64,000 nt of DNA from Escherichia coli (GTDB taxonomy: Bacteria > Pseudomonadota > Gammaproteobacteria > Enterobacterales > Enterobacteriaceae). A program made the translations under genes and the position numbers. Shown here one piece after another: positions 1-22,430 of this stretch (positions are counted from its first letter, which is position 1; each line of letters starts with the position of its first letter). The notes under the pieces are model-generated. The model made no database searches. It had not been told where the DNA came from and saw nothing but the letters and a program-made list of their open reading frames with translations. The stretch lies in assembly GCF_965641715.1 (NCBI RefSeq), contig NZ_OZ282453.1; one strand, written 5' to 3'.

Positions 1-135
1 ACCGCGACCCTGAAAGTGGGGAAACTGTATATCGATTACGACTACACCCCCGTCCCGCCGCTGGAAAATCTGACCCTGCGCCAGCGCATCACCGATACCT
101 ATCTGGCGAACCTGTCAGACTCGGTCAACAGCTAA
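1..135 (+). CDS. P2-like phage tail sheath protein (gpFI-like), 3' end only, truncated by window edge
   Basis: Open frame from window start to TAA at about 133-135, directly upstream of the tail tube gene; assignment by P2 gene order (FI-FII), not by a recognisable motif. Confidence 0.45.
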
Positions 136-147
136 GGAGCTCTGAGC

Positions 148-666
148 ATGGCGTTACCCCGCAAACTGAAATACCTGAACATGTTCAACGATGGCCTCAG
201 CTATATGGGCGTTGTTGAATCCGTCACCCTGCCAAAACTGACCCGCAAGCTGGAGAAATATCGCGGCGGCGGAATGCCGGGGGCGGTGTCGGTTGACCTC
301 GGCCTCGATGATGATGCGCTGTCGCTTGAGTGGACGCTCGGTGGTCTGCCTGACATTGAATTGTGGGTGCAGTACGCCTCGCCGGGTGCTGACAGTGTGC
401 CGCTGCGCTTTACCAGCTCTTATCAGCGTGACGACACCGGCGCGATTTCTGCCGTCGAGGTAGTGATGCGTGGCCGTCATAAAGAATACGACGGCGGTGA
501 AAACAAGCAGGGCGAAAGCGGCACGACCAAAATGGCGACCGAGTGCGCCTATTACCAGCTCACGATTGATGGCAAAGAAGTCATCGAAATTGACGTGATC
601 AACATGGTGCTGAAAGTCGACGGTGTCGACCGTATGGCAGAGCATCGCAAGGCGATTGGCCTGTAA
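148..666 (+). CDS. P2-like phage tail tube protein (gpFII family)
   Basis: 172-aa ORF in track, same length as P2 FII; sits in conserved order FII-E-T-U-D-ogr. Confidence 0.85.
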   Translation: MALPRKLKYLNMFNDGLSYMGVVESVTLPKLTRKLEKYRGGGMPGAVSVDLGLDDDALSLEWTLGGLPDIELWVQYASPGADSVPLRFTSSYQRDDTGAISAVEVVMRGRHKEYDGGENKQGESGTTKMATECAYYQLTIDGKEVIEIDVINMVLKVDGVDRMAEHRKAIGL

Positions 667-720
667 TCCCTCAACCGGTCAGCGGGGCTGGCCGGTCACT
701 TACCCTGATGAGAAATTCGC

Positions 721-1035
721 ATGAAAAATATCAATGAAACTGCTGTTGCTGGCACTGAAAACGTCAATCCGAATGTCGTTATTTTTGACACGCCGCTGAT
801 GCGTGGTGAGCAGAAAATTGAACAGGTCACCTTAACCAAACCAAACGCGGGAACCCTGCGCGGGGTGTCGCTGGCCTCGCTGGCAAGTTCCGACGTTGAC
901 GCGCTGATTAAGGTGCTGCCGCGCATGACGTATCCGGCACTGACCGAGCACGAGCTCGCGCGTCTGGATGCGTCAGACCTGATTTCGCTGGCCGGTAAGG
1001 TGGTCGGTTTTTTGTCACCGGCTTCGGGTCGCTGA
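721..1035 (+). CDS. P2-like tail assembly chaperone (gpE family), zero-frame product
   Basis: 104-aa ORF between tail tube and tape measure genes; contains slippery T TTT TTG near its 3' end as in P2 E/E+E'. Confidence 0.75.
   Translation: MKNINETAVAGTENVNPNVVIFDTPLMRGEQKIEQVTLTKPNAGTLRGVSLASLASSDVDALIKVLPRMTYPALTEHELARLDASDLISLAGKVVGFLSPASGR
1008..1014 (+). other. Programmed -1 ribosomal frameshift site (T TTT TTG) producing E+E' fusion that would terminate near 1190
   Basis: Heptamer TTTTTTG in the E frame (codons GGT TTT TTG); the -1 frame stays open from the slip site to a TAA overlapping the tape measure start (about 1188-1190). Conserved chaperone frameshift of long-tailed phages (lambda G/GT, P2 E/E+E'). 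Confidence 0.65.
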
Positions 1036-1179
1036 CCTTCCCGGAAAAACTGTCGGTCGATGACCTGATGGCGGATATCGCGGTGATCTTCCACTGGCCG
1101 CCATCAGAGCTAAATTCCCTGAGCGTGACCGAGCTCCTGACATGGCGCGATAAGGCGCTGCAACGAAGCGGAAGCCATC

Positions 1180-3621
1180 ATGAGCAATAACGTCAGAATC
1201 GAGGTGCTGCTGAACGCAGTCGACCGGGCAAGCCGCCCGCTTAAAGCGATTCAGAACGCCAGCAAATCCCTGTCCGGTGATATCCGCAATTCACAAAAAA
1301 GCCTGCGCGAACTTAATGCGCAGGCGTCCCGTATTGACGGATTCCGCAAAGCCAGCGCACAGCTTGCCGTGACCGGTCACTCGCTTGAGAAAGCGAAACA
1401 GGAAGCGCAAGCCCTTGTCACGCAATTTAAAAACACCGAGCGCCCGACACGTGCGCAGGCGCAGGTGCTTGAATCGGCAAAGCGTGCCGCCGACGGGCTG
1501 CAGACGAAATACAACAGCCTAACTGAGTCTGTGAAACGCCAGCAACGCGAGCTCGGTGCTGTCGGGATTAATACCCGTAATCTGGCAAATGATGAGCGGG
1601 GGCTCAAATCGCGCATCAGTGAGACGACTGCGCAGCTCAATCGGCAGCGTGAGGCACTGGCGAAAGTCAGCGCACAGCAGGCAAAGTTAAGCCGGGTGAA
1701 AGCGCGGTATCAGGCCGGTAAATCGCTTGCCGGTAGCATGGCGGCGGCTGGCGCGGCCGGTGTCGGTATTGCGACAACAGGAACCATGGCCGGGGTCAAG
1801 CTGCTGACGCCGGGTTATGAATTTGCACAGAAAAACTCAAAGCTGCAGGCAGTGCTCGGTGTCGACAAACAGTCGCCTGAAATGCAGGCGCTGCGTAAAC
1901 AAGCGCGCCAGCTCGGTGACAATACCGCTGCCTCTGCCGATGATGCGGCGGGTGCGCAGATTATCATCGCGAAAAGCGGCGGTGATGCGGCGGCCATTCA
2001 GGCGGCGACGCCGGTCACACTGAATATGGCGCTGTCCAACAAGCGCACGATGGAAGAGAACGCCGCGCTGCTGACGGGCATGAAATCCGCTTTCCAGCTC
2101 TCTAACGATAAAGTCGCGCATATTGGCGATGTTCTCTCGATGACGATGAACAAAACCGCCGCTGACTTTGACGGGATGAGCGATGCGCTGACCTATACCG
2201 CGCCGGTGGCGAAAAATGCCGGGGTGAGTATCGAAGAAACCGCCGCGATGGTGGGGGCGCTGCACGATTCTAAAATCACCGGCTCGATGGCGGGTACAGG
2301 GAGCCGTGCCGTTCTGAGTCGCCTGCAGGCGCCGACCGGTAAAGCCTACGACGCCATCAAAGAGCTCGGCATTAAAACGAGCGACAGCAAAGGCAATACG
2401 CGCCCGATATTTTCCATCCTGAAGGAAATGCAGCGCAGTTTTGAGAAAAACAATCTCGGAACGGGTCAGAAAGCCGAATACATGAAAACCATTTTCGGTG
2501 AAGAAGCCAGCTCAGCGGCCGCTGTGCTGATGGCCGCCGCATCAAACGGCAAGCTCGACCAGCTCACCGCCGCGTTTAAAGCCTCGGACGGCAAGACTGA
2601 GGAGCTGGTTAAGGTTATGCAGGATAACCTCGGCGGCGACTTTAAAGAGTTTCAGTCAGCCTATGAGGCGGTTGGCACTGACCTGTTTGATCAGCAGGAG
2701 GGCTCACTGCGTAAGCTGACGCAGACGGCCACGCAATATGTGCTCAGGCTCGACGGCTGGATCCAGAAAAATAAAGGGCTGGCGACCACCATCGGCGTGG
2801 TGGTCGGGGGTGCGCTGGCGCTGATTGGTGTAATGGGCGGGATTGGCCTTGTCGCATGGCCGGTGGTAATGGGGATTAATGCCATCATTGCGGCGGCTGG
2901 CGTGCTCGGTGTGGTTTTCAGTACGGTTGGAGGCGCGATTGTCACGGCCATTGGCGCAATCAGCCTGCCGGTGCTGGCGGTTGCCGGTGCCGTGGTGGCC
3001 GGTGCGTTGCTGATCCGTAAATACTGGGAGCCGCTCGGTGCATTTTTCTCGGGCGTGGTGGAGGGACTGAAAGCCGCCTTTGCACCGGTGGGGGACATGT
3101 TTACCCCGCTCGCGCCGGTGTTTGACGCCATCGCTGAAAAGCTGGGTGTCGTCTGCCAGTGGTTTAAAGACCTGCTTGCGCCGGTGAAAGCCACGCAGGA
3201 CACGCTCTCCAGTTGCAAAAATGTCGGCGTTACTTTTGGTCAGGCGCTGGCTGATGCGCTGATGATGCCGCTCAAGATGTTTAACAGCCTGAGCGGCAAG
3301 GTCGGCTGGCTGCTGGAGAAACTCGGCGTTATCAAAAAAGAATCCAGCGACCTCGACCAGACCGCAGCGAAAGCGAATAAGGCGTCCCCGAATGGCGGGT
3401 ATATCCCTGCGACCGCAGGTTATGGCGGGTATCAGGCGTATCAGCCGGTCACAGCGCCCGCAGGCCTGTCTTATATCGACCAGAGCAAAAGCGAATACAA
3501 CATCAACCTGCAGGGCGGAGTCGCACCGGGCAGTGACCTTGACCGCCAGCTCCGTGACGCGGTCGACAAACTTGACCGCGAGAAACGTGCGCGTCAGCGA
3601 TCCAGTATGAGACTCGACTGA
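1180..3621 (+). CDS. P2-like phage tail tape measure protein (gpT family)
   Basis: 813-aa ORF; Ala/Gln/Lys-rich N-terminal half and long Gly/Ala/Val-rich hydrophobic segment; position between E/E' and U. Confidence 0.9.
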   Translation: MSNNVRIEVLLNAVDRASRPLKAIQNASKSLSGDIRNSQKSLRELNAQASRIDGFRKASAQLAVTGHSLEKAKQEAQALVTQFKNTERPTRAQAQVLESAKRAADGLQTKYNSLTESVKRQQRELGAVGINTRNLANDERGLKSRISETTAQLNRQREALAKVSAQQAKLSRVKARYQAGKSLAGSMAAAGAAGVGIATTGTMAGVKLLTPGYEFAQKNSKLQAVLGVDKQSPEMQALRKQARQLGDNTAASADDAAGAQIIIAKSGGDAAAIQAATPVTLNMALSNKRTMEENAALLTGMKSAFQLSNDKVAHIGDVLSMTMNKTAADFDGMSDALTYTAPVAKNAGVSIEETAAMVGALHDSKITGSMAGTGSRAVLSRLQAPTGKAYDAIKELGIKTSDSKGNTRPIFSILKEMQRSFEKNNLGTGQKAEYMKTIFGEEASSAAAVLMAAASNGKLDQLTAAFKASDGKTEELVKVMQDNLGGDFKEFQSAYEAVGTDLFDQQEGSLRKLTQTATQYVLRLDGWIQKNKGLATTIGVVVGGALALIGVMGGIGLVAWPVVMGINAIIAAAGVLGVVFSTVGGAIVTAIGAISLPVLAVAGAVVAGALLIRKYWEPLGAFFSGVVEGLKAAFAPVGDMFTPLAPVFDAIAEKLGVVCQWFKDLLAPVKATQDTLSSCKNVGVTFGQALADALMMPLKMFNSLSGKVGWLLEKLGVIKKESSDLDQTAAKANKASPNGGYIPATAGYGGYQAYQPVTAPAGLSYIDQSKSEYNINLQGGVAPGSDLDRQLRDAVDKLDREKRARQRSSMRLD

Positions 3622-3634
3622 GGGAGGGATAAAA

Positions 3635-4099
3635 ATGTTAATGGGGCTGGGCTTTTTCGTGTTTGAACGGCGCACCCTGCCGCATCAGTCAATGCAGTAT
3701 TCGAAGGACTACCGCTGGGTGTCAAATGACCGTATCGGAAAACCCCCGGCTTATCAGTATCTCGGGGAGGGGGAAACCTCGCGTACCCTGTCGGGCACGC
3801 TTTACCCTGAAATCACCGGCGGGCGTCTGTCACTGATGGCCATCGAACTGATGGCCGATGAGGGGCGCGCATGGCCGCTGATTGACGGAACCGGCATGAT
3901 CCACGGGATGTATGTCATCGATAAAGTGACTCACAACCACACCGAGTTATTCAGCGACGGCGCGGCTAAAAAAATCGAGTTTAGCCTGTCGCTTAAGCGG
4001 GTGGATGAATCCCTCGCGGCCATCTACGGCGACCTGAAAACGCAGGCTGATAATCTGGTCACGTCTGCCGGTAACTGGCTCGGGGGGCTGGCGGGATGA
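3635..4099 (+). CDS. P2-like phage tail protein (gpU family)
   Basis: 154-aa ORF immediately after tape measure and overlapping gpD start by 4 nt; P2 synteny. Confidence 0.8.
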   Translation: MLMGLGFFVFERRTLPHQSMQYSKDYRWVSNDRIGKPPAYQYLGEGETSRTLSGTLYPEITGGRLSLMAIELMADEGRAWPLIDGTGMIHGMYVIDKVTHNHTELFSDGAAKKIEFSLSLKRVDESLAAIYGDLKTQADNLVTSAGNWLGGLAG

Positions 4100-5259
4100 T
4101 AACGGGAATGACTATTCAGGCCGGGGCGCGCATTGCTCCTGATTTTATGCTCACGCTCGGTGGCGCAGATATCACACAGAATTTCAGCGACCGGCTTATC
4201 GGGCTGACCATGACCGACAATCGCGGATTCGAGGCTGACCAGCTTGATATCGAGCTCGATGATACCGATGGACTGGTCGAGCTGCCGCCGCGCGGGGCAT
4301 CGCTGACCCTGTGGCTGGGCTGGCAGGGCTCGGCGCTGATTAACAAAGGGAGTTTTACGGTTGACGAAATCGAGCACCGGGGCGCGCCTGACAGGCTGAC
4401 TATCCGGGGACGCAGTGCGGATTTTCGCGGGACGCTGAACTCGCGCCGCGAGCAGTCATGGCACGACACCACGCTCGGGGTGATTGTCGAGACTATCGCG
4501 CAGCGTAACAAACTGACGGCCAGCGTGGCTGATACCCTGAAAGCTGTTGCTGTGCCGCATATTGACCAGTCTCAGGAATCCGACGCGGCGTTTTTGTCCC
4601 GACTGGCGGATCGCAACGGGGCAACGGTTTCGGTCAAGGCCGGGAAATTGTTATTCCTGAAAGCCGGTAGCGCGATGACGGCCAGTGGTAAGGCCATCCC
4701 GCAAATGACCGTCGAACGCGGCGACGGCGACCGGCATCAGTTTGCCATAGCCGACCGCGAGGCATACTCCGGCGTAACCGCTAAATGGCTGCACACCAGA
4801 GACCCGAAACCGCAAAAGCAAAAGGTGAAGCTCAAGCGCAAACCCAAAGAGCAGCACCTGCGTGCGCTGCAGCACCCGAAGGTTGCTAAAACATCGGCAA
4901 AGGCTAAAAAGAAGAAGGTGCAGGAAGCGCGGGAAGGTGAGTATATGGCCGGTGAGTCCGACAATGTTCTGGAACTCACGACCATCTACGCGACAAAGGC
5001 GCAGGCCATGCGCGCAGCTCAGGCAAAGTGGGACAGGATACAGCGTGGGGTGGCGGAGTTTTCGATCACGCTCGCCACTGGCCGCGCTGATTTATTTCCT
5101 GAAACGCCGGTGGCAGTGAAAGGCTTTAAGCGCGTTATAGACGAGCAGGCGTGGATAATCAGTCGTGTGGTACACAGCCTCAACGGGAGCGGCTTCACGA
5201 CGGGCTTAGAGCTTGAGGTTAAGGTTTCTGATGTGGAGTATGAAAGCGAGGAAGTTTAA
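4096..5259 (+). CDS. P2-like phage tail protein D (gpD family)
   Basis: 387-aa ORF (same length as P2 gpD) with Lys-rich basic stretch; followed by ogr. K-12 retains only a remnant of this gene (yegZ) at this position. Confidence 0.85.
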   Translation: MITGMTIQAGARIAPDFMLTLGGADITQNFSDRLIGLTMTDNRGFEADQLDIELDDTDGLVELPPRGASLTLWLGWQGSALINKGSFTVDEIEHRGAPDRLTIRGRSADFRGTLNSRREQSWHDTTLGVIVETIAQRNKLTASVADTLKAVAVPHIDQSQESDAAFLSRLADRNGATVSVKAGKLLFLKAGSAMTASGKAIPQMTVERGDGDRHQFAIADREAYSGVTAKWLHTRDPKPQKQKVKLKRKPKEQHLRALQHPKVAKTSAKAKKKKVQEAREGEYMAGESDNVLELTTIYATKAQAMRAAQAKWDRIQRGVAEFSITLATGRADLFPETPVAVKGFKRVIDEQAWIISRVVHSLNGSGFTTGLELEVKVSDVEYESEEV

Positions 5260-5339
5260 CGGTGTGTGTTGTTTATGTGTTTGTTTTATAAATAAAAATT
5301 AGTAAAATTAACACATTGAATACGCCGGAGACCCTCATC

Positions 5340-5561
5340 ATGTTTCATTGTCCGAAATGCCATCATGCCGCCCACGCCCGCACGAGTCGCTATTTTACTG
5401 ATACCACAAAAGAGCGGTATCACCAGTGCACAAACATTAACTGCAGCTGCACGTTTGTGACCACTGAAACAGTCGAGCGTTTTATCGTGTCGCCGGGGGA
5501 AGTAGTACCCGCGCCGCCGCATCCGACATCATCAGGTCAGCAACAAATTCACTGGATGTGA
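5340..5561 (+). CDS. ogr: Ogr/Delta-family zinc-finger late-gene transcription activator
   Basis: 72-aa product MFHCPKCHHAAHARTSRYF...CTNINCSCTF with Cys4 zinc-finger spacing typical of P2 Ogr; ATG at 5340 inside track ORF 5316-5561. Confidence 0.9.
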   Translation: MFHCPKCHHAAHARTSRYFTDTTKERYHQCTNINCSCTFVTTETVERFIVSPGEVVPAPPHPTSSGQQQIHWM

Positions 5562-5571
5562 CAAACGAGAA

Positions 5572-5596
5572 AGCCCCGCGAATGCGGGGCTTTTTG
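5572..5596 (+). terminator. Rho-independent terminator downstream of ogr
   Basis: GC stem AGCCCCGC / GCGGGGCT with 4-nt loop followed by TTTTT, 10 nt after the ogr stop. Confidence 0.65.
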
Positions 5597-5866
5597 CAAC
5601 TTTTAGATCAGTTATGTTAAGTACATTTCCGTCGGCAAAGTGCCAGGAGCGGGTTCTAGAGAGTGACTAACGTTAGTTATATGTGTAAAATTCCTTAAAA
5701 ATAAGAAGGATATATATCCATGACAGCAATTGCATATTGGATTAACTGAGAATCAATTGAGAAATTTTTGGGGGGCAAAAAATAAACTAGCTAATTAAAT
5801 TTTTATAAATAACGAATATAAGACTGCAAGCCATTTAACAAAAGTTTATAAATAAAGGAGTCAGTT

Positions 5867-6718
5867 TTGAACAATATCCCCATATCTACTCAATGGACTT
5901 TAGACGCTACGGGTGAAGTTGGACGCTCATCAGTAAATTCTGTTTATATGATTATATGTCCTGCGACAGGCTCGAAAGGATCTGGTTTTTTAATAGATAA
6001 TGGGTTAATAGTAACGAACGAGCATGTTATCACTGGATGCTCTACAAATCAGATTTTCGCAATTTCAGCTTATGGACAGAAGATTCCAATTTCTCAAAAA
6101 TGGATAGATTCTGATCGCGATTTAGCTGTGCTGAGACCTGCCATTACCCAGACTGGTGGGCTAAGTATTGTTAAGGATAATGATCTTAAAGTTGGTGAAT
6201 CAGTAACAACTTGGGGATACCCATTAGGATACAACGGTCCTGCACCGTTACTATCCGTTGGTTATCTAGCAGGATTTAACTCATACCAAACCGCCAAGGG
6301 ACAAAAAAAACATCTAGTGGTAAATGGGGCATTTAACTCAGGAAATTCTGGTGGAGCTCTTTTAAAAGCTTCAGATAATAAAGTAATAGGTATTGTAGTG
6401 AGTAAGCATGCTCCTATCAGTCAATACCATCAATCAGCTATTGAAGCTTTGTCTGAAAATATGAGTGGCGTCACCTATACCGCTACTAATGACGCTGGAG
6501 AAACTAAAAGTTTTGTAGAATCTCAAATTGTAGCAGAATTATTGATTCATATGAGAAGTCTAACTCAAGTTATGATTGGAGAAGCAATTGCAGCAGAGGA
6601 ATTACTTTCGATGCTTAGCGAAATTGACTTGAGTCCACCACAATCTATGTCAAGAAATGCCTTATGTCATTGCGGGAGTGGAAAACGCTTCAAAGAATGT
6701 CATGGAAAGATATCCTAG
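5867..6718 (+). CDS. Prophage cargo protein: cytoplasmic HtrA/DegP-like (S1C, trypsin-fold) serine protease domain fused to C-terminal SEC-C zinc-binding motif
   Basis: 283-aa ORF with TTG start 6 nt after an AAGGAG Shine-Dalgarno. Motifs: GSGFLI...TNEHV (His about aa 53), DLAVL (Asp about aa 85), GNSGGAL (Ser about aa 161), as in the DegP/HtrA catalytic triad. C-terminus CHCGSGKRFKECHG matches the SecA SEC-C zinc motif. No signal peptide, no PDZ domain. Visibly AT-rich relative to flanks. Confidence 0.75.
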   Translation: MNNIPISTQWTLDATGEVGRSSVNSVYMIICPATGSKGSGFLIDNGLIVTNEHVITGCSTNQIFAISAYGQKIPISQKWIDSDRDLAVLRPAITQTGGLSIVKDNDLKVGESVTTWGYPLGYNGPAPLLSVGYLAGFNSYQTAKGQKKHLVVNGAFNSGNSGGALLKASDNKVIGIVVSKHAPISQYHQSAIEALSENMSGVTYTATNDAGETKSFVESQIVAELLIHMRSLTQVMIGEAIAAEELLSMLSEIDLSPPQSMSRNALCHCGSGKRFKECHGKIS

Positions 6719-6866
6719 TAAGTACTTATATCAGTCTGATAATGGCTCTTCAAATACAAAAGACTTCACTTACTCTGCCGTCATCTCTGCTCCTCGCTTA
6801 TTGCAGACGGTCAAAAGCTTACAAGCTGTTGACTAGATGTGTTCTTACATTGTCAGTTAAAACAAA

Positions 6867-6891
6867 AGCCCCGCAAATGCGGGGCTTTTTG
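6867..6891 (+). terminator. Rho-independent terminator downstream of the cargo gene (near-identical copy of the ogr terminator)
   Basis: Stem AGCCCCGC / GCGGGGCT, loop AAAT, then TTTTT; differs from the 5572-5596 hairpin essentially by one loop base. Confidence 0.65.
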
Positions 6892-6956: not shown

Positions 6957-6983
6957 AAAAAATAAGCCCGTGTAAGGGAGATT
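6957..6983. other. P2-type attachment site core (prophage attR), identical to the 3' end of cyaR
   Basis: Sequence AAAAAATAAGCCCGTGTAAGGGAGATT matches the 27-nt P2 att core as I recall it; lies at the junction between prophage cargo and the host cyaR gene. Confidence 0.55.
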
Positions 6984-7043
6984 ACACAGGCTAAGGAGGT
7001 GGTTCCTGGTACAGCTAGCATTTTATGGGTTATGTTTTTCAGC
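6957..7043 (-). ncRNA. cyaR: CyaR (RyeE) Hfq-dependent sRNA
   Basis: Minus-strand sequence GCUGAAAAACAUAACCCAUAAAAUGCUAGCUGUACCAGGAACCACCUCCUUAGCCUGUGUAAUCUCCCUUACACGGGCUUAUUUUUU matches CyaR from memory, including the CCUCCU anti-SD loop and terminator; a TGTGA CRP half-site lies about 40 nt upstream. Confidence 0.8.
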
Positions 7044-7127
7044 GAAGCGGATGATAACCTTAATAAATGCAGCTGTATGTGATCGGTTTCTAAGAATTTT
7101 CCATCCGGGAAAAATAATCGAAATTAA

Positions 7128-8591: not shown

Positions 8592-8888
8592 TTAGCTCCA
8601 GTGTAAATGTCTGGTGGCGTCCTGGTTTTGGTTAAGGATACGAATGACGATAATTTCCCCTGGTGATTGCAGGAAATAAATTACGTGGCGTTCAAAAGGA
8701 AGAACAAAAATACCTTCGCCTAATTCAGGTCTGGGCGTACCTATATTATTGTTACTCAGAATCTGGAGAACGTCTGAAAGATGTTCCACATATCTGTCGG
8801 CTTGTGGTTCGCCGAAATGGTGATAACTGTAATACCAGATGCCTTCTAAATCTTCATTGGCTTTTGGCATGAGTTTAATAATACGCAC
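8592..8888 (-). CDS. ParE/RelE-superfamily type II toxin (ParE-like)
   Basis: 98-aa ORF with ParE-like features (...IVIRILNQNQD...); immediately downstream of, and 1 nt from, a ParD-like antitoxin gene. Start codon uncertain (GTG at 8888 or internal ATG, Met7). Confidence 0.7.
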   Translation of the reverse strand: MRIIKLMPKANEDLEGIWYYSYHHFGEPQADRYVEHLSDVLQILSNNNIGTPRPELGEGIFVLPFERHVIYFLQSPGEIIVIRILNQNQDATRHLHWS

Positions 8889-8889
8889 A

Positions 8890-9141
8890 TTATTTCCTTA
8901 TCCCTGCTTTCACCTTCCGTAAAAACGCGTCCTTTTCCCACGGCTGAGCTTCACCACTACTCAACCCTTCTGCAAGCATGTCACGTAACGCTTGCAGGCG
9001 AGACTCTGCTTGCTTTTCTCGAAGTAAGCGCAGTGACTCACGGATCACTTCGCTTTGGGTGCGATAGTCGCCGGATTCAATTAAGGACTCGATAAATTCA
9101 CGCAACTCATCGCCGAGATCAACCGTCATCGTTCTGGCCAT
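8890..9141 (-). CDS. ParD-like antitoxin (ribbon-helix-helix, CopG family)
   Basis: 83-aa ORF MARTMTVDLGDELREFIESLIESGDYRTQSEVIRESLRLLRE..., typical ParD N-terminal RHH; upstream partner of the ParE-like gene. Confidence 0.75.
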   Translation of the reverse strand: MARTMTVDLGDELREFIESLIESGDYRTQSEVIRESLRLLREKQAESRLQALRDMLAEGLSSGEAQPWEKDAFLRKVKAGIRK

Positions 9142-21129: not shown

Positions 21130-21270
21130 GCCCCTCCCGAGGAAGGGGCCATAAATAAGGAAAGGGTCATGATGAAGATACTCATCATCGTGGTGCTCTT
21201 AGTGATTAGCTACCCAGCATACTAAGACTACCAGGGCGGGGGAACCCCCGCTCTACCCTCACTCCTGAAA
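21130..21270 (-). ncRNA. Sib-family antisense sRNA (antitoxin), copy 1; boundaries approximate
   Basis: Inferred from the Ibs/Sib architecture: Sib RNAs are about 140 nt and fully complementary to the ibs ORF on the opposite strand; ends not determinable from sequence alone. Confidence 0.4.
21169..21225 (+). CDS. Ibs-family type I toxin peptide, copy 1 (MMKILIIVVLLVISYPAY)
   Basis: 18-codon ORF with ATGATG start and hydrophobic core, hand-translated from the repeat unit; not in ORF track (below size cutoff). Confidence 0.6.
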   Translation: MMKILIIVVLLVISYPAY

Positions 21271-21457
21271 GTATGCCTTCACGTTCAGAATGTCAATCCG
21301 CAGGCTTTGCAGTCTGCGATCCTGCCAGCAAATATTCTTTGCGAGACGTTACGCAATAATCACACTTGAAACTATTTTATCCGCAAGTCAGCGATAGACT
21401 GCATACAGGGCGAAAGGAGGTAAGCCGAAGATTTCAGCGGGACGCTGAAACGGGAAA

Positions 21458-21598
21458 GCCCCTCCCGAGGAAGGGGCCTTAAATAAGGAAAGGGTCATGA
21501 TGAAGTGGATCATCATCGTGGTGCTCTTAGTTATTAGCTTGCCGGCTTACTAAGTCATCAAAGCGGGGGAAACCCCGCTCTACCCTCACTCCTGAAAG
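21458..21598 (-). ncRNA. Sib-family antisense sRNA, copy 2; boundaries approximate
   Basis: As copy 1, by repeat periodicity. Confidence 0.4.
21497..21553 (+). CDS. Ibs-family type I toxin peptide, copy 2 (MMKWIIIVVLLVISLPAY)
   Basis: 18-codon ORF at the equivalent position of repeat unit 2. Confidence 0.6.
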   Translation: MMKWIIIVVLLVISLPAY

Positions 21599-21784
21599 TA
21601 TGCCTTCACGGTCAGATTGTCAATCCGCAGGCTTTGCAGTCTGCGATCCTGCCAGCAAATATTCTTTGCGAGGCGTTACGCAATAATCACACTTGAAACT
21701 ATTTTATCCGCAAGTCAGCGATAGACTGCATACAGGGCGAAAGGAGGTAAGCCGAAGATTTCAGCGGGACGCTGAAACGGGAAA

Positions 21785-21925
21785 GCCCCTCCCGAGGAAG
21801 GGGCCTTAAATAAGGAAAGGGTCATGATGAAGCTACTCATCATCGTGGTGCTCTTAGTCATAAGCTTCCCCGCTTACTAAGACTACCAGGGCGGGGGAAC
21901 CCCCGCTCTACCCTCATTCCTGAAA
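21785..21925 (-). ncRNA. Sib-family antisense sRNA, copy 3; boundaries approximate
   Basis: As copy 1, by repeat periodicity. Confidence 0.4.
21824..21880 (+). CDS. Ibs-family type I toxin peptide, copy 3 (MMKLLIIVVLLVISFPAY)
   Basis: 18-codon ORF at the equivalent position of repeat unit 3. Confidence 0.6.
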   Translation: MMKLLIIVVLLVISFPAY

Positions 21926-22112
21926 GTATGCCTTCACGGTCAGATTGTCAATCTGCAGGCTTTGCAGTCTGCGATCCTGCCAGCAAATATTCTTTGCGAG
22001 ACGTTACGCAATAATCACACTGGAAACTATTTTATCCGCAAGTCAGCGATAGACTGCATGCATGGCGAAAGGAGGTAAGCCGACGATTTCAGCGGGATGC
22101 TGAAACGGGAAA

Positions 22113-22256
22113 GCCCCTCCCGAGGAAGGGGCCTTAAATAAGGAAAGGGTTATGATGAAGCACGTCATCATACTGGTGATACTCTTAGTGATTAGCTTCC
22201 AGGCTTACTAAGAACACCAGGGGGAGGGGGAAACCTCTCCTAACCCTCACTTCTGA
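22113..22256 (-). ncRNA. Sib-family antisense sRNA, copy 4; boundaries approximate
   Basis: As copy 1, by repeat periodicity. Confidence 0.4.
22152..22211 (+). CDS. Ibs-family type I toxin peptide, copy 4 (MMKHVIILVILLVISFQAY)
   Basis: 19-codon ORF in the most diverged, yegL-proximal repeat unit; closest to K-12 IbsA as I recall it. Confidence 0.6.
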   Translation: MMKHVIILVILLVISFQAY

Positions 22257-22430
22257 AATTATGTCACTCCGCCCTTAGTGTCAATCGACGGCTCTCCGTT
22301 CTTGCGAGGCGAATAGCAAAATTTTCTGCGCCGCCGGGCCTAATTCTGAAAGTTTCTTCGTTTGCTCTTATTTCATTATTGCAATCGGTATGATACCGGA
22401 CCTCAATAATTCTCTAAGAAAGGATTTCTT

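Follow-up and report, generated by a model that had tools for sequence, protein, structure and literature searches.

In phage P2, gene E is flanked by FII, which encodes the tail tube, and by the tape measure gene T, and a −1 shift at TTTTTTG yields two products from one start, the 91-aa E and the 142-aa E+E′, according to PMC3091744 and PMC3931495 (citing Christie et al., 2002). P2 requires both proteins to build its tails (PMC3091744). The E stop follows the heptamer by six codons, the E′ stop overlaps the start of T, and the two parts of the product fall into the Pfam families PF10109 and PF06528. The literature has recorded this frameshift since 2002, and it is conserved throughout the Peduoviridae. 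The equivalent genes of phage 186 (orf51/orf52, gene H) and PSP3 (orf23/orf23.5) have the same architecture and heptamer; the records of P2, 186, and PSP3 all annotate the −1 frameshift at the same sequence, and that of P2 marks it at the G.

An analogous arrangement is found in phage lambda, which has a non-contractile tail. The overlapping ORF pair G/GT lies between the major tail and tape measure genes, and ribosomes slip by −1 near the end of the first ORF, on G_GGA_AAG. As summarized in PMC5009743 (from Levin, 1993; Xu, Hendrix and Duda, 2004, 2013, 2014), low-level slippage gives a short and a rare long product in a fixed ratio; both products serve as assembly chaperones, and neither is present in virions. 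The same overview puts the G/GT ratio at about 30:1 and assigns the chaperone roles (PMC5009743).

Other −1 signals are furnished with stimulatory elements. E. coli dnaX and the cassettes of IS elements combine an X_XXY_YYZ heptamer with an upstream Shine-Dalgarno (SD)-like sequence; in dnaX-type signals the SD stimulator stands 9–14 nt upstream of the slip site and a stem-loop lies a few nucleotides downstream (PMC5009743). Here, a locus in an E. coli chromosome is compared with these systems.

Results

A P2-Type Tail Operon at the Right End of a Prophage

The window (the whole stretch of DNA analysed, 64,000 nt of E. coli chromosome) begins in the last codons of a sheath gene and contains the right end of a P2-like prophage, which adjoins cyaR/yegQ (Table 1). 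The gene order tube-E/E′-tape measure-U-D-ogr is that of P2, 186, and PSP3, with U and D completing a FETUD-type operon. The DNA is only about 75–77% identical to that of P2-group phages. The tail tube ORF matches PF04985 (Phage_tube, E = 2.8e-58) over the full profile and the tape measure ORF matches PF10145 (PhageMin_Tail, E = 1.3e-43) in a Pfam scan. Similarity to sequenced P2-like phages stops near position 5596, the match to Enterobacter phage ENT4 ending at 5595.

Table 1. Features of the prophage right end, with positions in the window.
Feature	Position	Strand	Remarks
Tail tube gene (P2 FII homologue)	148–666	+	172-aa ORF; directly upstream of E
Gene E, tail assembly chaperone	721–1035	+	0-frame product 104 aa; ATG 721, TGA 1033–1035
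SD-like element AAGGTGGTCG	997–1006	+	just 5′ of slip site; possible modulator
Slippery heptamer T_TTT_TTG	1008–1014	+	X_XXY_YYZ phase; sequence and context as in P2
Dual-coding overlap	1014–1035	+	last 0-frame E codons and TGA, with first E′ codons
E′, −1 frame extension	1014–1190	+	58 codons and TAA 1188–1190
Hairpin A, inside E′	1065–1107	+	10-bp outer stem, 6-bp inner stem; clade-specific
Hairpin B (GGCGC/GCGCU), inside E′	1144–1159	+	recovered in consensus fold
Tape measure gene (P2 T homologue)	1180–3621	+	813-aa ORF; ATG overlaps E′ end
Tail gene U	3635–4099	+	154 aa; PF06995 Phage_P2_GpU, E = 2.6e-39
Tail gene D	4096–5259	+	387 aa; PF05954 Phage_GPD, E = 6.2e-25
ogr-like late activator gene	5316–5561	+	PF04606 Ogr_Delta, E = 2.2e-20
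Terminator hairpin after ogr-like gene	5570–5596	+	repeat and hairpin

A preliminary description of this DNA had taken the frameshift as support for a tail module that is intact and functional and has not decayed to a remnant. The part of that claim that concerns the visible genes holds: FII (172 aa), E, E′, T, U, D, and Ogr are full length with end-to-end Pfam matches, and the module is clearly not a remnant of the short ogr/D-fragment type. As the window covers only the last 5.6 kb of the prophage, the arrangement might be an inherited relic in a defective element, neither expressed nor functional now; this is very improbable, given that all seven visible frames are full length with end-to-end family matches, that in the nearest E. 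coli relative the prophage is complete from int to ogr and contains a single pseudogene, a non-structural one, and that the module is present with at least 90% identity in about 50 E. coli genomes. Over positions 1–5300 the closest of the complete E. coli genomes has 97.4% identity, and at the same site it carries a full prophage that spans about 31 kb between int and ogr, which makes intactness of the present prophage plausible, though not proven for this genome. On the side of the relic reading, this chromosomal site is known to hold a P2 remnant in K-12 strains.

Anatomy of the Slip Site and the −1 Frame

Gene E, placed between FII and T as in P2, belongs to the gpE tail assembly chaperone family, as judged from matches to PF10109 (Phage_TAC_7, E = 1.4e-10, 41.4 bits vs. 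a cutoff of 25, Pfam scan) and to the tail protein family phrog_103 (E = 1e-41), and from 59 residues identical to the N-part of P2 E. Its 0-frame product has a longer, divergent N-terminus compared with the 91-aa protein of P2, and the E of 186/PSP3 has 111 aa with a different N-terminus, its gene ending in TAG rather than TGA.

The heptamer lies in phase near the 3′ end of E: its first T closes a GGT codon, and TTT and TTG come next. The slip site with its flanks (GGTCGGTTTTTTGTC) is identical to that of P2. The preliminary description had located the slippery sequence a few codons before the E stop, and six 0-frame codons (SPASGR) do separate it from the TGA. Read from G1014, the −1 frame stays open for 58 codons, with no stop before position 1188, to the predicted TAA, which overlaps the tape measure ATG at 1180 (ATGAGCAATAA overlap). 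The E start and E′ stop thus coincide exactly with the 721–1190 interval first proposed, and the E+E′ fusion (721–1014 joined to 1014–1190) has 156 aa compared with 142 aa in P2, E′ having one extra codon before its stop. The −1 frame has no ribosome binding site of its own, and the +1 frame is closed after 15 codons.

TTTTTTG occurs 17 times in the window (17.3 expected), so that the heptamer alone, present at chance frequency, has no meaning by itself. Among the codon positions of the five tail genes, only 0.8% have a −1 frame that remains open for 58 codons or longer, and the combination of heptamer and long open −1 frame is above chance.

Homology of the extension to known E′ segments, the absence of which the preliminary description would have taken as refuting it, was borne out. 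The −1 extension matches PF06528 (Phage_P2_GpE, E = 1.5e-19, 69.6 bits vs. a cutoff of 23, Pfam scan) and phrog_1756 (E = 1.8e-25, residues 1–57 covered), and is identical to P2 E′ at 39/58 residues (67%) and to 186 E′ at 45/58 (78%). A search of PDB sequences with E+E′ found no solved relative (best E = 0.52). Like lambda G/GT, the locus has two overlapping ORFs flanked by the major tail gene and the tape measure gene, with the slip site near the end of the first ORF. The Pfam scan detected no sequence homology to lambda gpG/gpT, yielding only PF10109 and PF06528, and the heptamer is T_TTT_TTG rather than G_GGA_AAG; the two systems are analogous in function but do not belong to one family.

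Conservation of the Signal and Constraint on the −1 Frame

In-phase TTTTTT(G/A) is kept at all 84 P2/186-like loci compared (81 TTTTTTG, 3 TTTTTTA), always six codons before the E stop and followed by an open −1 frame of 57–62 codons, whose end overlies the ATG of T in all but one; the ATGAG(C/T)AA(TAA) overlap at the E′/T junction is conserved in this comparison. TTTTTTG with a −1 frame open into T is also kept in 10 of 12 divergent Peduoviridae (from Erwinia, Klebsiella, Salmonella, Shewanella, Pseudomonas, Burkholderia, Ralstonia, and Aeromonas), and one relative has the same gene layout with a non-homopolymeric G_GGA_AAG heptamer.

These patterns bear on whether the frame might instead change in the RNA, by polymerase stuttering on T6 that adds a U to some transcripts, normal translation of which would give E+E′. 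The shift site is a homopolymer run, and bacterial transcriptional slippage on A/T runs is known (PMC5009743). However, the run has only six T, compared with about nine in documented bacterial cases (PMC5009743), its reading phase, which matters for tRNA re-pairing and not for a stuttering polymerase, is fixed in 84/84 loci, and the relative of the same layout uses G_GGA_AAG, so that we regard this mechanism as extremely improbable.

Synonymous diversity is near zero at most codons of the dual-coding overlap, as expected where two reading frames overlap. Beyond the E stop, entropy in the alignment of positions 1036–1067 is 0.19, 0.16, and 0.81 at the first, second, and third codon positions of the −1 frame, respectively; since variation falls mainly at −1-frame third positions, this stretch, which lies upstream of the internal ATG at 1068, appears to be translated in the −1 frame.

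This codon periodicity argues against reading E′ as a separate small gene, expressed from ATG 1068 without any frameshift as a 40-aa "GpE family phage tail protein." Such an ORF does exist (1068–1190), the Pfam GpE domain starts exactly at its ATG, and RefSeq/PGAP and several phage records annotate E′ as a separate gene, as does the automated annotation of the closest E. coli genome, which calls a 40-aa E′ from the equivalent ATG. But the 32 nt before that ATG have −1-frame codon periodicity and no purine-rich ribosome binding site precedes it; divergent relatives have Val, Ile, or Ala at this residue, with GCC (Ala) in RSA1 and ATT (Ile) in Mannheimia, neither of which is a usual start codon. 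Moreover, the −1 ORF runs unbroken back to the heptamer in every locus compared, phrog_1756 spans the whole 58-residue extension, and the product described for P2 is the fusion (PMC3091744). An independently initiated E′ is therefore highly improbable.

Candidate cis Elements Around the Slip Site and in E′

The predicted duplex of positions 997–1006 with the 3′ end of 16S rRNA has a free energy of −12.8 kcal/mol, which places this element among the strongest 0.06% of tail-operon 10-mers. Its codon K93 is AAG, and its codon V94 GTG, in 79 of 80 sequences each; the SD-like motif AAGGTGAT is shared with 186/PSP3, and GGTG(A/G)T-like motifs are present in most divergent relatives. As a dnaX-type stimulator the element has the right strength but the wrong spacing: depending on the core alignment, 4–7 nt separate the element from the heptamer, and no SD-like stimulator was found at the 9–14 nt reported for −1 signals (PMC5009743). 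A role for the element in modulating slippage is therefore a hypothesis.

Nor was a stable stem-loop or pseudoknot found a few nucleotides 3′ of the heptamer. Folds of 1008–1100 (z = −1.4) and 1015–1060 (z = −0.5) are no better than those of shuffled sequences, and consensus folds of 63 and 71 sequences contain no conserved helix 5–9 nt downstream, in agreement with the absence of a stem-loop just 3′ of the P2-type heptamer in PMC3091744. Two further candidates were rejected. An RNAalifold hairpin around the slip site (GGUGG...CACC, alignment columns 22–42) has one-sided changes only, and a ribosome decoding the site would unwind it. The other is a long-range helix that would pair the bases just past the E stop with the T ribosome binding site and so couple translation of T to termination of E. 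It looks promising in P2 (−10.8 kcal/mol) as well as here, but many relatives keep just 3 bp of it.

Unlike the stem-loop of dnaX-type signals, the only conserved hairpin at this locus starts about 50 nt downstream of the slip site. Hairpin A has a free energy of −23.5 kcal/mol (z = −3.5), a stability that none of 200 shuffles reached, and 99.6% of cells in a 63-sequence alignment are paired, without compensatory change. Its stem codons have a synonymous diversity of 0.08 compared with 0.32 in E (p = 3e-4). The hairpin is shared with 186/PSP3, and all 15 pairs are present in phage 186. It was not retained as a universal part of the signal, as only 5–11 of the 15 homologous pairs form in divergent Peduoviridae that keep TTTTTTG and no compensatory change occurs within the clade. 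Hairpin B has a free energy of −8.6 kcal/mol (z = −2.4); all 80 sequences have the same stem codons, R143 CGC and A146 GCG, whereas the loop codons D144 and K145 vary. In both E′ hairpins, the codons of the stems are synonymously frozen and those of the loops drift.

Discussion

The anatomy of the sequence, the homology of both parts of the product, the conservation of the signal, and the −1-frame constraint upstream of internal start codons are direct observations, and we conclude with high confidence that the locus represents the programmed −1 ribosomal frameshift known from P2 (E/E+E′), here in an E. coli prophage of the P2-like type (Peduoviridae). As a counterpart of the P2 frameshift it is nothing biologically new.

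What we infer is that ribosomes slip in this strain, how efficiently and through exactly which tRNA events they do so, and that the products act as chaperones; by analogy with P2 and lambda, tandem tRNA slippage would give E and a minor amount of E+E′. Most ribosomes would read E to its TGA and release the 104-aa tail assembly chaperone, and a minority would move back one base while decoding T_TTT_TTG, the P-site tRNA-Phe re-pairing from UUU to UUU and the A-site tRNA-Leu from UUG to UUU. The slipped ribosomes would then read the 58 codons of the −1 frame and release a 156-aa E+E′ that has the N-terminus of E and a GpE-domain C-terminus. Tandem slippage after decoding of Leu would be marked by the predicted junction tryptic peptide VVGFLVTGFGSLTFPEK, and −1 decoding in the A site by the predicted junction peptide VVGFFVTGFGSLTFPEK (VVGFFVTGF... 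is the alternative predicted junction peptide), and the C-terminal peptide of the 0-frame product would be VVGFLSPASGR. The efficiency of slippage is not predictable, because there is no canonical conserved 3′ structure and the SD-like element lies too close to the heptamer.

By the same analogy with P2 E/E+E′ and lambda G/GT, both E and E+E′ would act on the tape measure protein encoded downstream. Recruitment of tail tube subunits is the role generally proposed for the rare long form, so that the fixed ratio set by slippage would be part of tail assembly, and neither E nor E+E′ is expected in the virion.

A more tentative proposal, which we think unlikely, is that in the P2/186 clade, including this prophage, the E′ region doubles as a structured RNA, with the hairpins and the SD-like element as previously undescribed cis elements. 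Earlier screens, which reported no structure, looked no further than about 60 nt downstream. If the proposal is true, these elements might tune the efficiency of frameshifting, shield from Rho or RNases a largely untranslated stretch that only a few frameshifted ribosomes would read, or set translation of the tape measure.

For annotation, the correct product is the 156-aa E+E′ fusion, in place of which pipelines frequently annotate a 40-aa "GpE family" gene of its own, and the recoding signal is recognizable from the raw sequence. The tail operon at the window's left end appears to belong to an intact P2-like prophage and not to a short remnant.

Anatomy of the frameshift site

The leftmost 5.6 kb of the window holds the final part of a P2-like tail operon, as read from the ORF list and a Pfam scan (see table). 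The heptamer T_TTT_TTG (1008-1014) lies within GGT TTT TTG of the 104-aa E ORF, in X_XXY_YYZ phase, and the TGA of E (1033-1035) is six codons past it. Reading from G1014, the -1 frame has 58 open codons before a TAA (1188-1190) within ATGAGCAATAA, which also holds the tape measure ATG (1180); the +1 frame at the slip site is shut after 15 codons. The preliminary description had read 721-1190 as a conserved -1 programmed frameshift in the tail chaperone gene, and took this as a sign of an intact, functional tail module; because the ORFs, the heptamer phase, the E stop and the -1 stop over the tape measure start are all read in the sequence, its coordinates and its account of the site are exact.

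Features of the tail operon end in the window
Feature	Coordinates	Strand	Pfam family
Tail tube gene	148-666	+	PF04985
E (104-aa ORF)	721-1035	+	PF10109 (Phage_TAC_7)
Tape measure gene	1180-3621	+	PF10145
U	3635-4099	+	
D	4096-5259	+	
Ogr/Delta zinc-finger activator	5316-5561	+	

The window has 17 copies of TTTTTTG over its two strands, with 17.3 expected; the heptamer by itself is not beyond chance, but its combination with a long open -1 frame and a homologous extension is. Across five tail genes, the -1 frame stays open for at least 58 codons after only 0.8% of codon positions, and the 58-residue extension matches PF06528, Phage P2 GpE (E=1.5e-19; 69.6 bits, cutoff 23), and phrog_1756 (E=1.8e-25).

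Comparison with characterized phages

By megablast the tail module falls among the Peduoviridae, with 82% identity to Enterobacter phage ENT4 and 75-77% to BIS20, Yersinia P2-like phages, 186, PSP3 and others. In its record, P2 has E (91 aa) and E+E' (a joined CDS with a -1 frameshift) annotated, and the G of TTTTTTG is marked as the "site of -1 translational frameshift"; the local sequence there is GGTCGGTTTTTTGTCGCC in P2 and GGTCGGTTTTTTGTCACC in the window; 186 (orf51/orf52) and PSP3 (orf23/orf23.5) carry the same frameshift annotation. The window E' has 39 of 58 residues in common with P2 E', and 45 of 58 with each of 186 and PSP3. According to the passages on the P2 experiments (Christie et al. 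2002) in two later sources, both the 91-aa E and a 142-aa E+E' arise from one start through a -1 shift at TTTTTTG, E' is without a ribosome binding site of its own, and a downstream hairpin was not found (PMC3091744; PMC3931495). In lambda, the G:GT ratio is about 30:1 and both proteins are absent from virions (PMC5009743).

Conservation across related phages

Searching IMG/VR for the fusion protein gave 595 confirmed stretches, the best 80 of which (69-93% identity) were analyzed with P2, 186, PSP3 and the window. An in-phase TTTTTT(G/A) is present at all 84 loci (81 G, 3 A), always exactly six codons from the E stop. The -1 frame past it has 57-62 open codons, and its end overlaps the tape measure ATG in 83. 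At the exception (IMG/VR contig 3300035363_000005, around 941-1160), the -1 frame has 62 codons and the usual overlapping ATG was not found; this junction may be a variant or a sequencing error. The E' domain is present in 404 phage records.

Among 12 divergent Peduoviridae (hosts Erwinia, Klebsiella, Salmonella, Shewanella, Pseudomonas, Burkholderia, Mannheimia, Ralstonia and Aeromonas), all have a -1 frame that stays open into the tape measure gene and 10 keep TTTTTTG; T_TTT_TTG is not universal in the family. Mannheimia phage 535AP1 (L094 665-671) has a lambda-like G_GGA_AAG in its place, and in Klebsiella phage ST16-OXA48phi5.4 (L090 620-626) the sole candidate is C_CCT_TTC; in both, the -1 frame remains open and encodes the GpE domain.

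A change of frame by transcriptional slippage on the T run is unlikely: the run is six Ts only, against about nine in documented cases (PMC5009743), its reading phase is strictly conserved, and a relative with the same gene layout uses a non-homopolymeric heptamer. Automated annotation frequently calls E' as a separate gene of 40 aa that begins at the counterpart of ATG 1068. RefSeq/PGAP does so in E. coli AR_0137, the closest E. coli genome (L098 32455-32924, corresponding to window 721-1190), giving E and a separate "GpE family phage tail protein" rather than E+E', as do several phage records. Against this call, no Shine-Dalgarno sequence was found upstream of 1068, divergent relatives have Val, Ile or Ala at that position, and the -1 ORF reaches back to the heptamer at every one of the 84 loci and in the 12 divergent phages. 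In the 32 nt from the E stop to ATG 1068, the three codon positions of the -1 frame have alignment entropies of 0.19, 0.16 and 0.81, the signature of sequence translated in that frame.

Possible stimulatory elements

Single-sequence and consensus folds revealed no conserved structure 3' of the heptamer at the canonical spacing, which matches the literature. Three hypothesized cis features emerge from sequence comparison: a 10-mer abutting the heptamer and two hairpins within E', a region that would be translated only rarely. The 10-mer, AAGGTGGTCG (997-1006), is complementary to the anti-Shine-Dalgarno sequence; its predicted duplex with the 16S 3' end (-12.8 kcal/mol) ranks in the top 0.06% for the operon and is as strong as that of gene U's own RBS. 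The Lys and Val codons within it are fixed at the synonymous level in 79 of 80 sequences, and most divergent relatives carry comparable motifs ahead of the T run; it stands 4-7 nt from the heptamer, closer than the 9-14 nt described for -1 stimulators. The window, P2 and 186 all have the larger hairpin (1065-1107; -23.5 kcal/mol, z=-3.5) intact, and over 63 sequences it is 99.6% paired. Synonymous diversity is 0.08 at its stem codons, lower than in E (0.32, p=3e-4) and in the rest of E' (0.27, p=7e-3) by a post hoc test, and its loop codons vary freely; the smaller hairpin (1144-1159) likewise has frozen stem codons and variable loop codons. This pattern in both hairpins holds across the P2/186 clade but is lost in divergent Peduoviridae. 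The hairpins contain no compensatory changes, the test was post hoc, and the larger hairpin is not retained in divergent Peduoviridae that still carry the heptamer; the elements would at most be clade-specific modulators. A long-range helix pairing the E stop with the tape measure RBS was tested and rejected.

Genomic context and prophage integrity

The tail module shares 97.4% identity with a prophage of AR_0137 and other strains, and about 50 genomes hold it at 90% identity or more. Since AR_0137 carries a complete prophage of about 31 kb between yegR and yegQ (int to ogr, one non-structural pseudogene), the view that the module belongs to an intact prophage is supported by way of that genome; the window itself has only the last 5.6 kb. 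Two variable spots of the AR_0137 prophage (L098 12435-15106 and 23962-25576) hold apparent cargo genes, for DUF3696 with a hypothetical protein and for DUF262 with a HEPN-domain protein, which are plausibly anti-phage defense.

Outside the prophage end, the window is E. coli chromosome, containing yegQ/trhP, the CyaR sRNA, yegP, baeSR-mdtABCD, four Sib RNAs and the colanic acid cluster. Of 5426 complete E. coli genomes, 5423 match the segment 5300-9800 (95-99% identity), but only 34 do so over 80% or more of its length, so part of it is rare. Between ogr and the CyaR gene (6960-7045, minus strand), a 27-nt terminator-like hairpin sequence, AAAGCCCCGC(G/A)AATGCGGGGCTTTTTG, occurs twice, 1295 nt apart (5570-6891), flanking an island that is AT-rich (33-40% GC, with the prophage at about 58%) and whose single gene (5867-6718) encodes a trypsin-like peptidase that has a SEC-C motif at its C-terminus; the island could be phage cargo or an insertion at the attachment site. 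Two small ORFs (98 and 83 aa) lie between yegQ and yegP (8592-9141, minus strand), around which matching E. coli genomes have a ParD antitoxin and a RelE/ParE toxin annotated. The Sib antitoxin RNAs (RF00113, 127-142 bits) are tandem copies about 330 nt apart (21154-22284, minus strand).

Mechanism and implications

The observation of a -1 programmed frameshift signal in the tail chaperone gene is confirmed and its interpretation supported, with site anatomy, homology and evolutionary constraint established. A minority of ribosomes would slip by -1 on T_TTT_TTG, the P-site tRNA-Phe re-pairing from UUU to UUU and the A-site tRNA-Leu from UUG to UUU, to yield a 156-aa E+E' beside abundant 104-aa E. 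Both proteins would chaperone the tape measure protein, and the E' domain would take the part of the T domain of lambda in tube subunit recruitment. The site is one more instance of a textbook recoding signal that is already known; its practical worth lies in the correct annotation of the 156-aa fusion.
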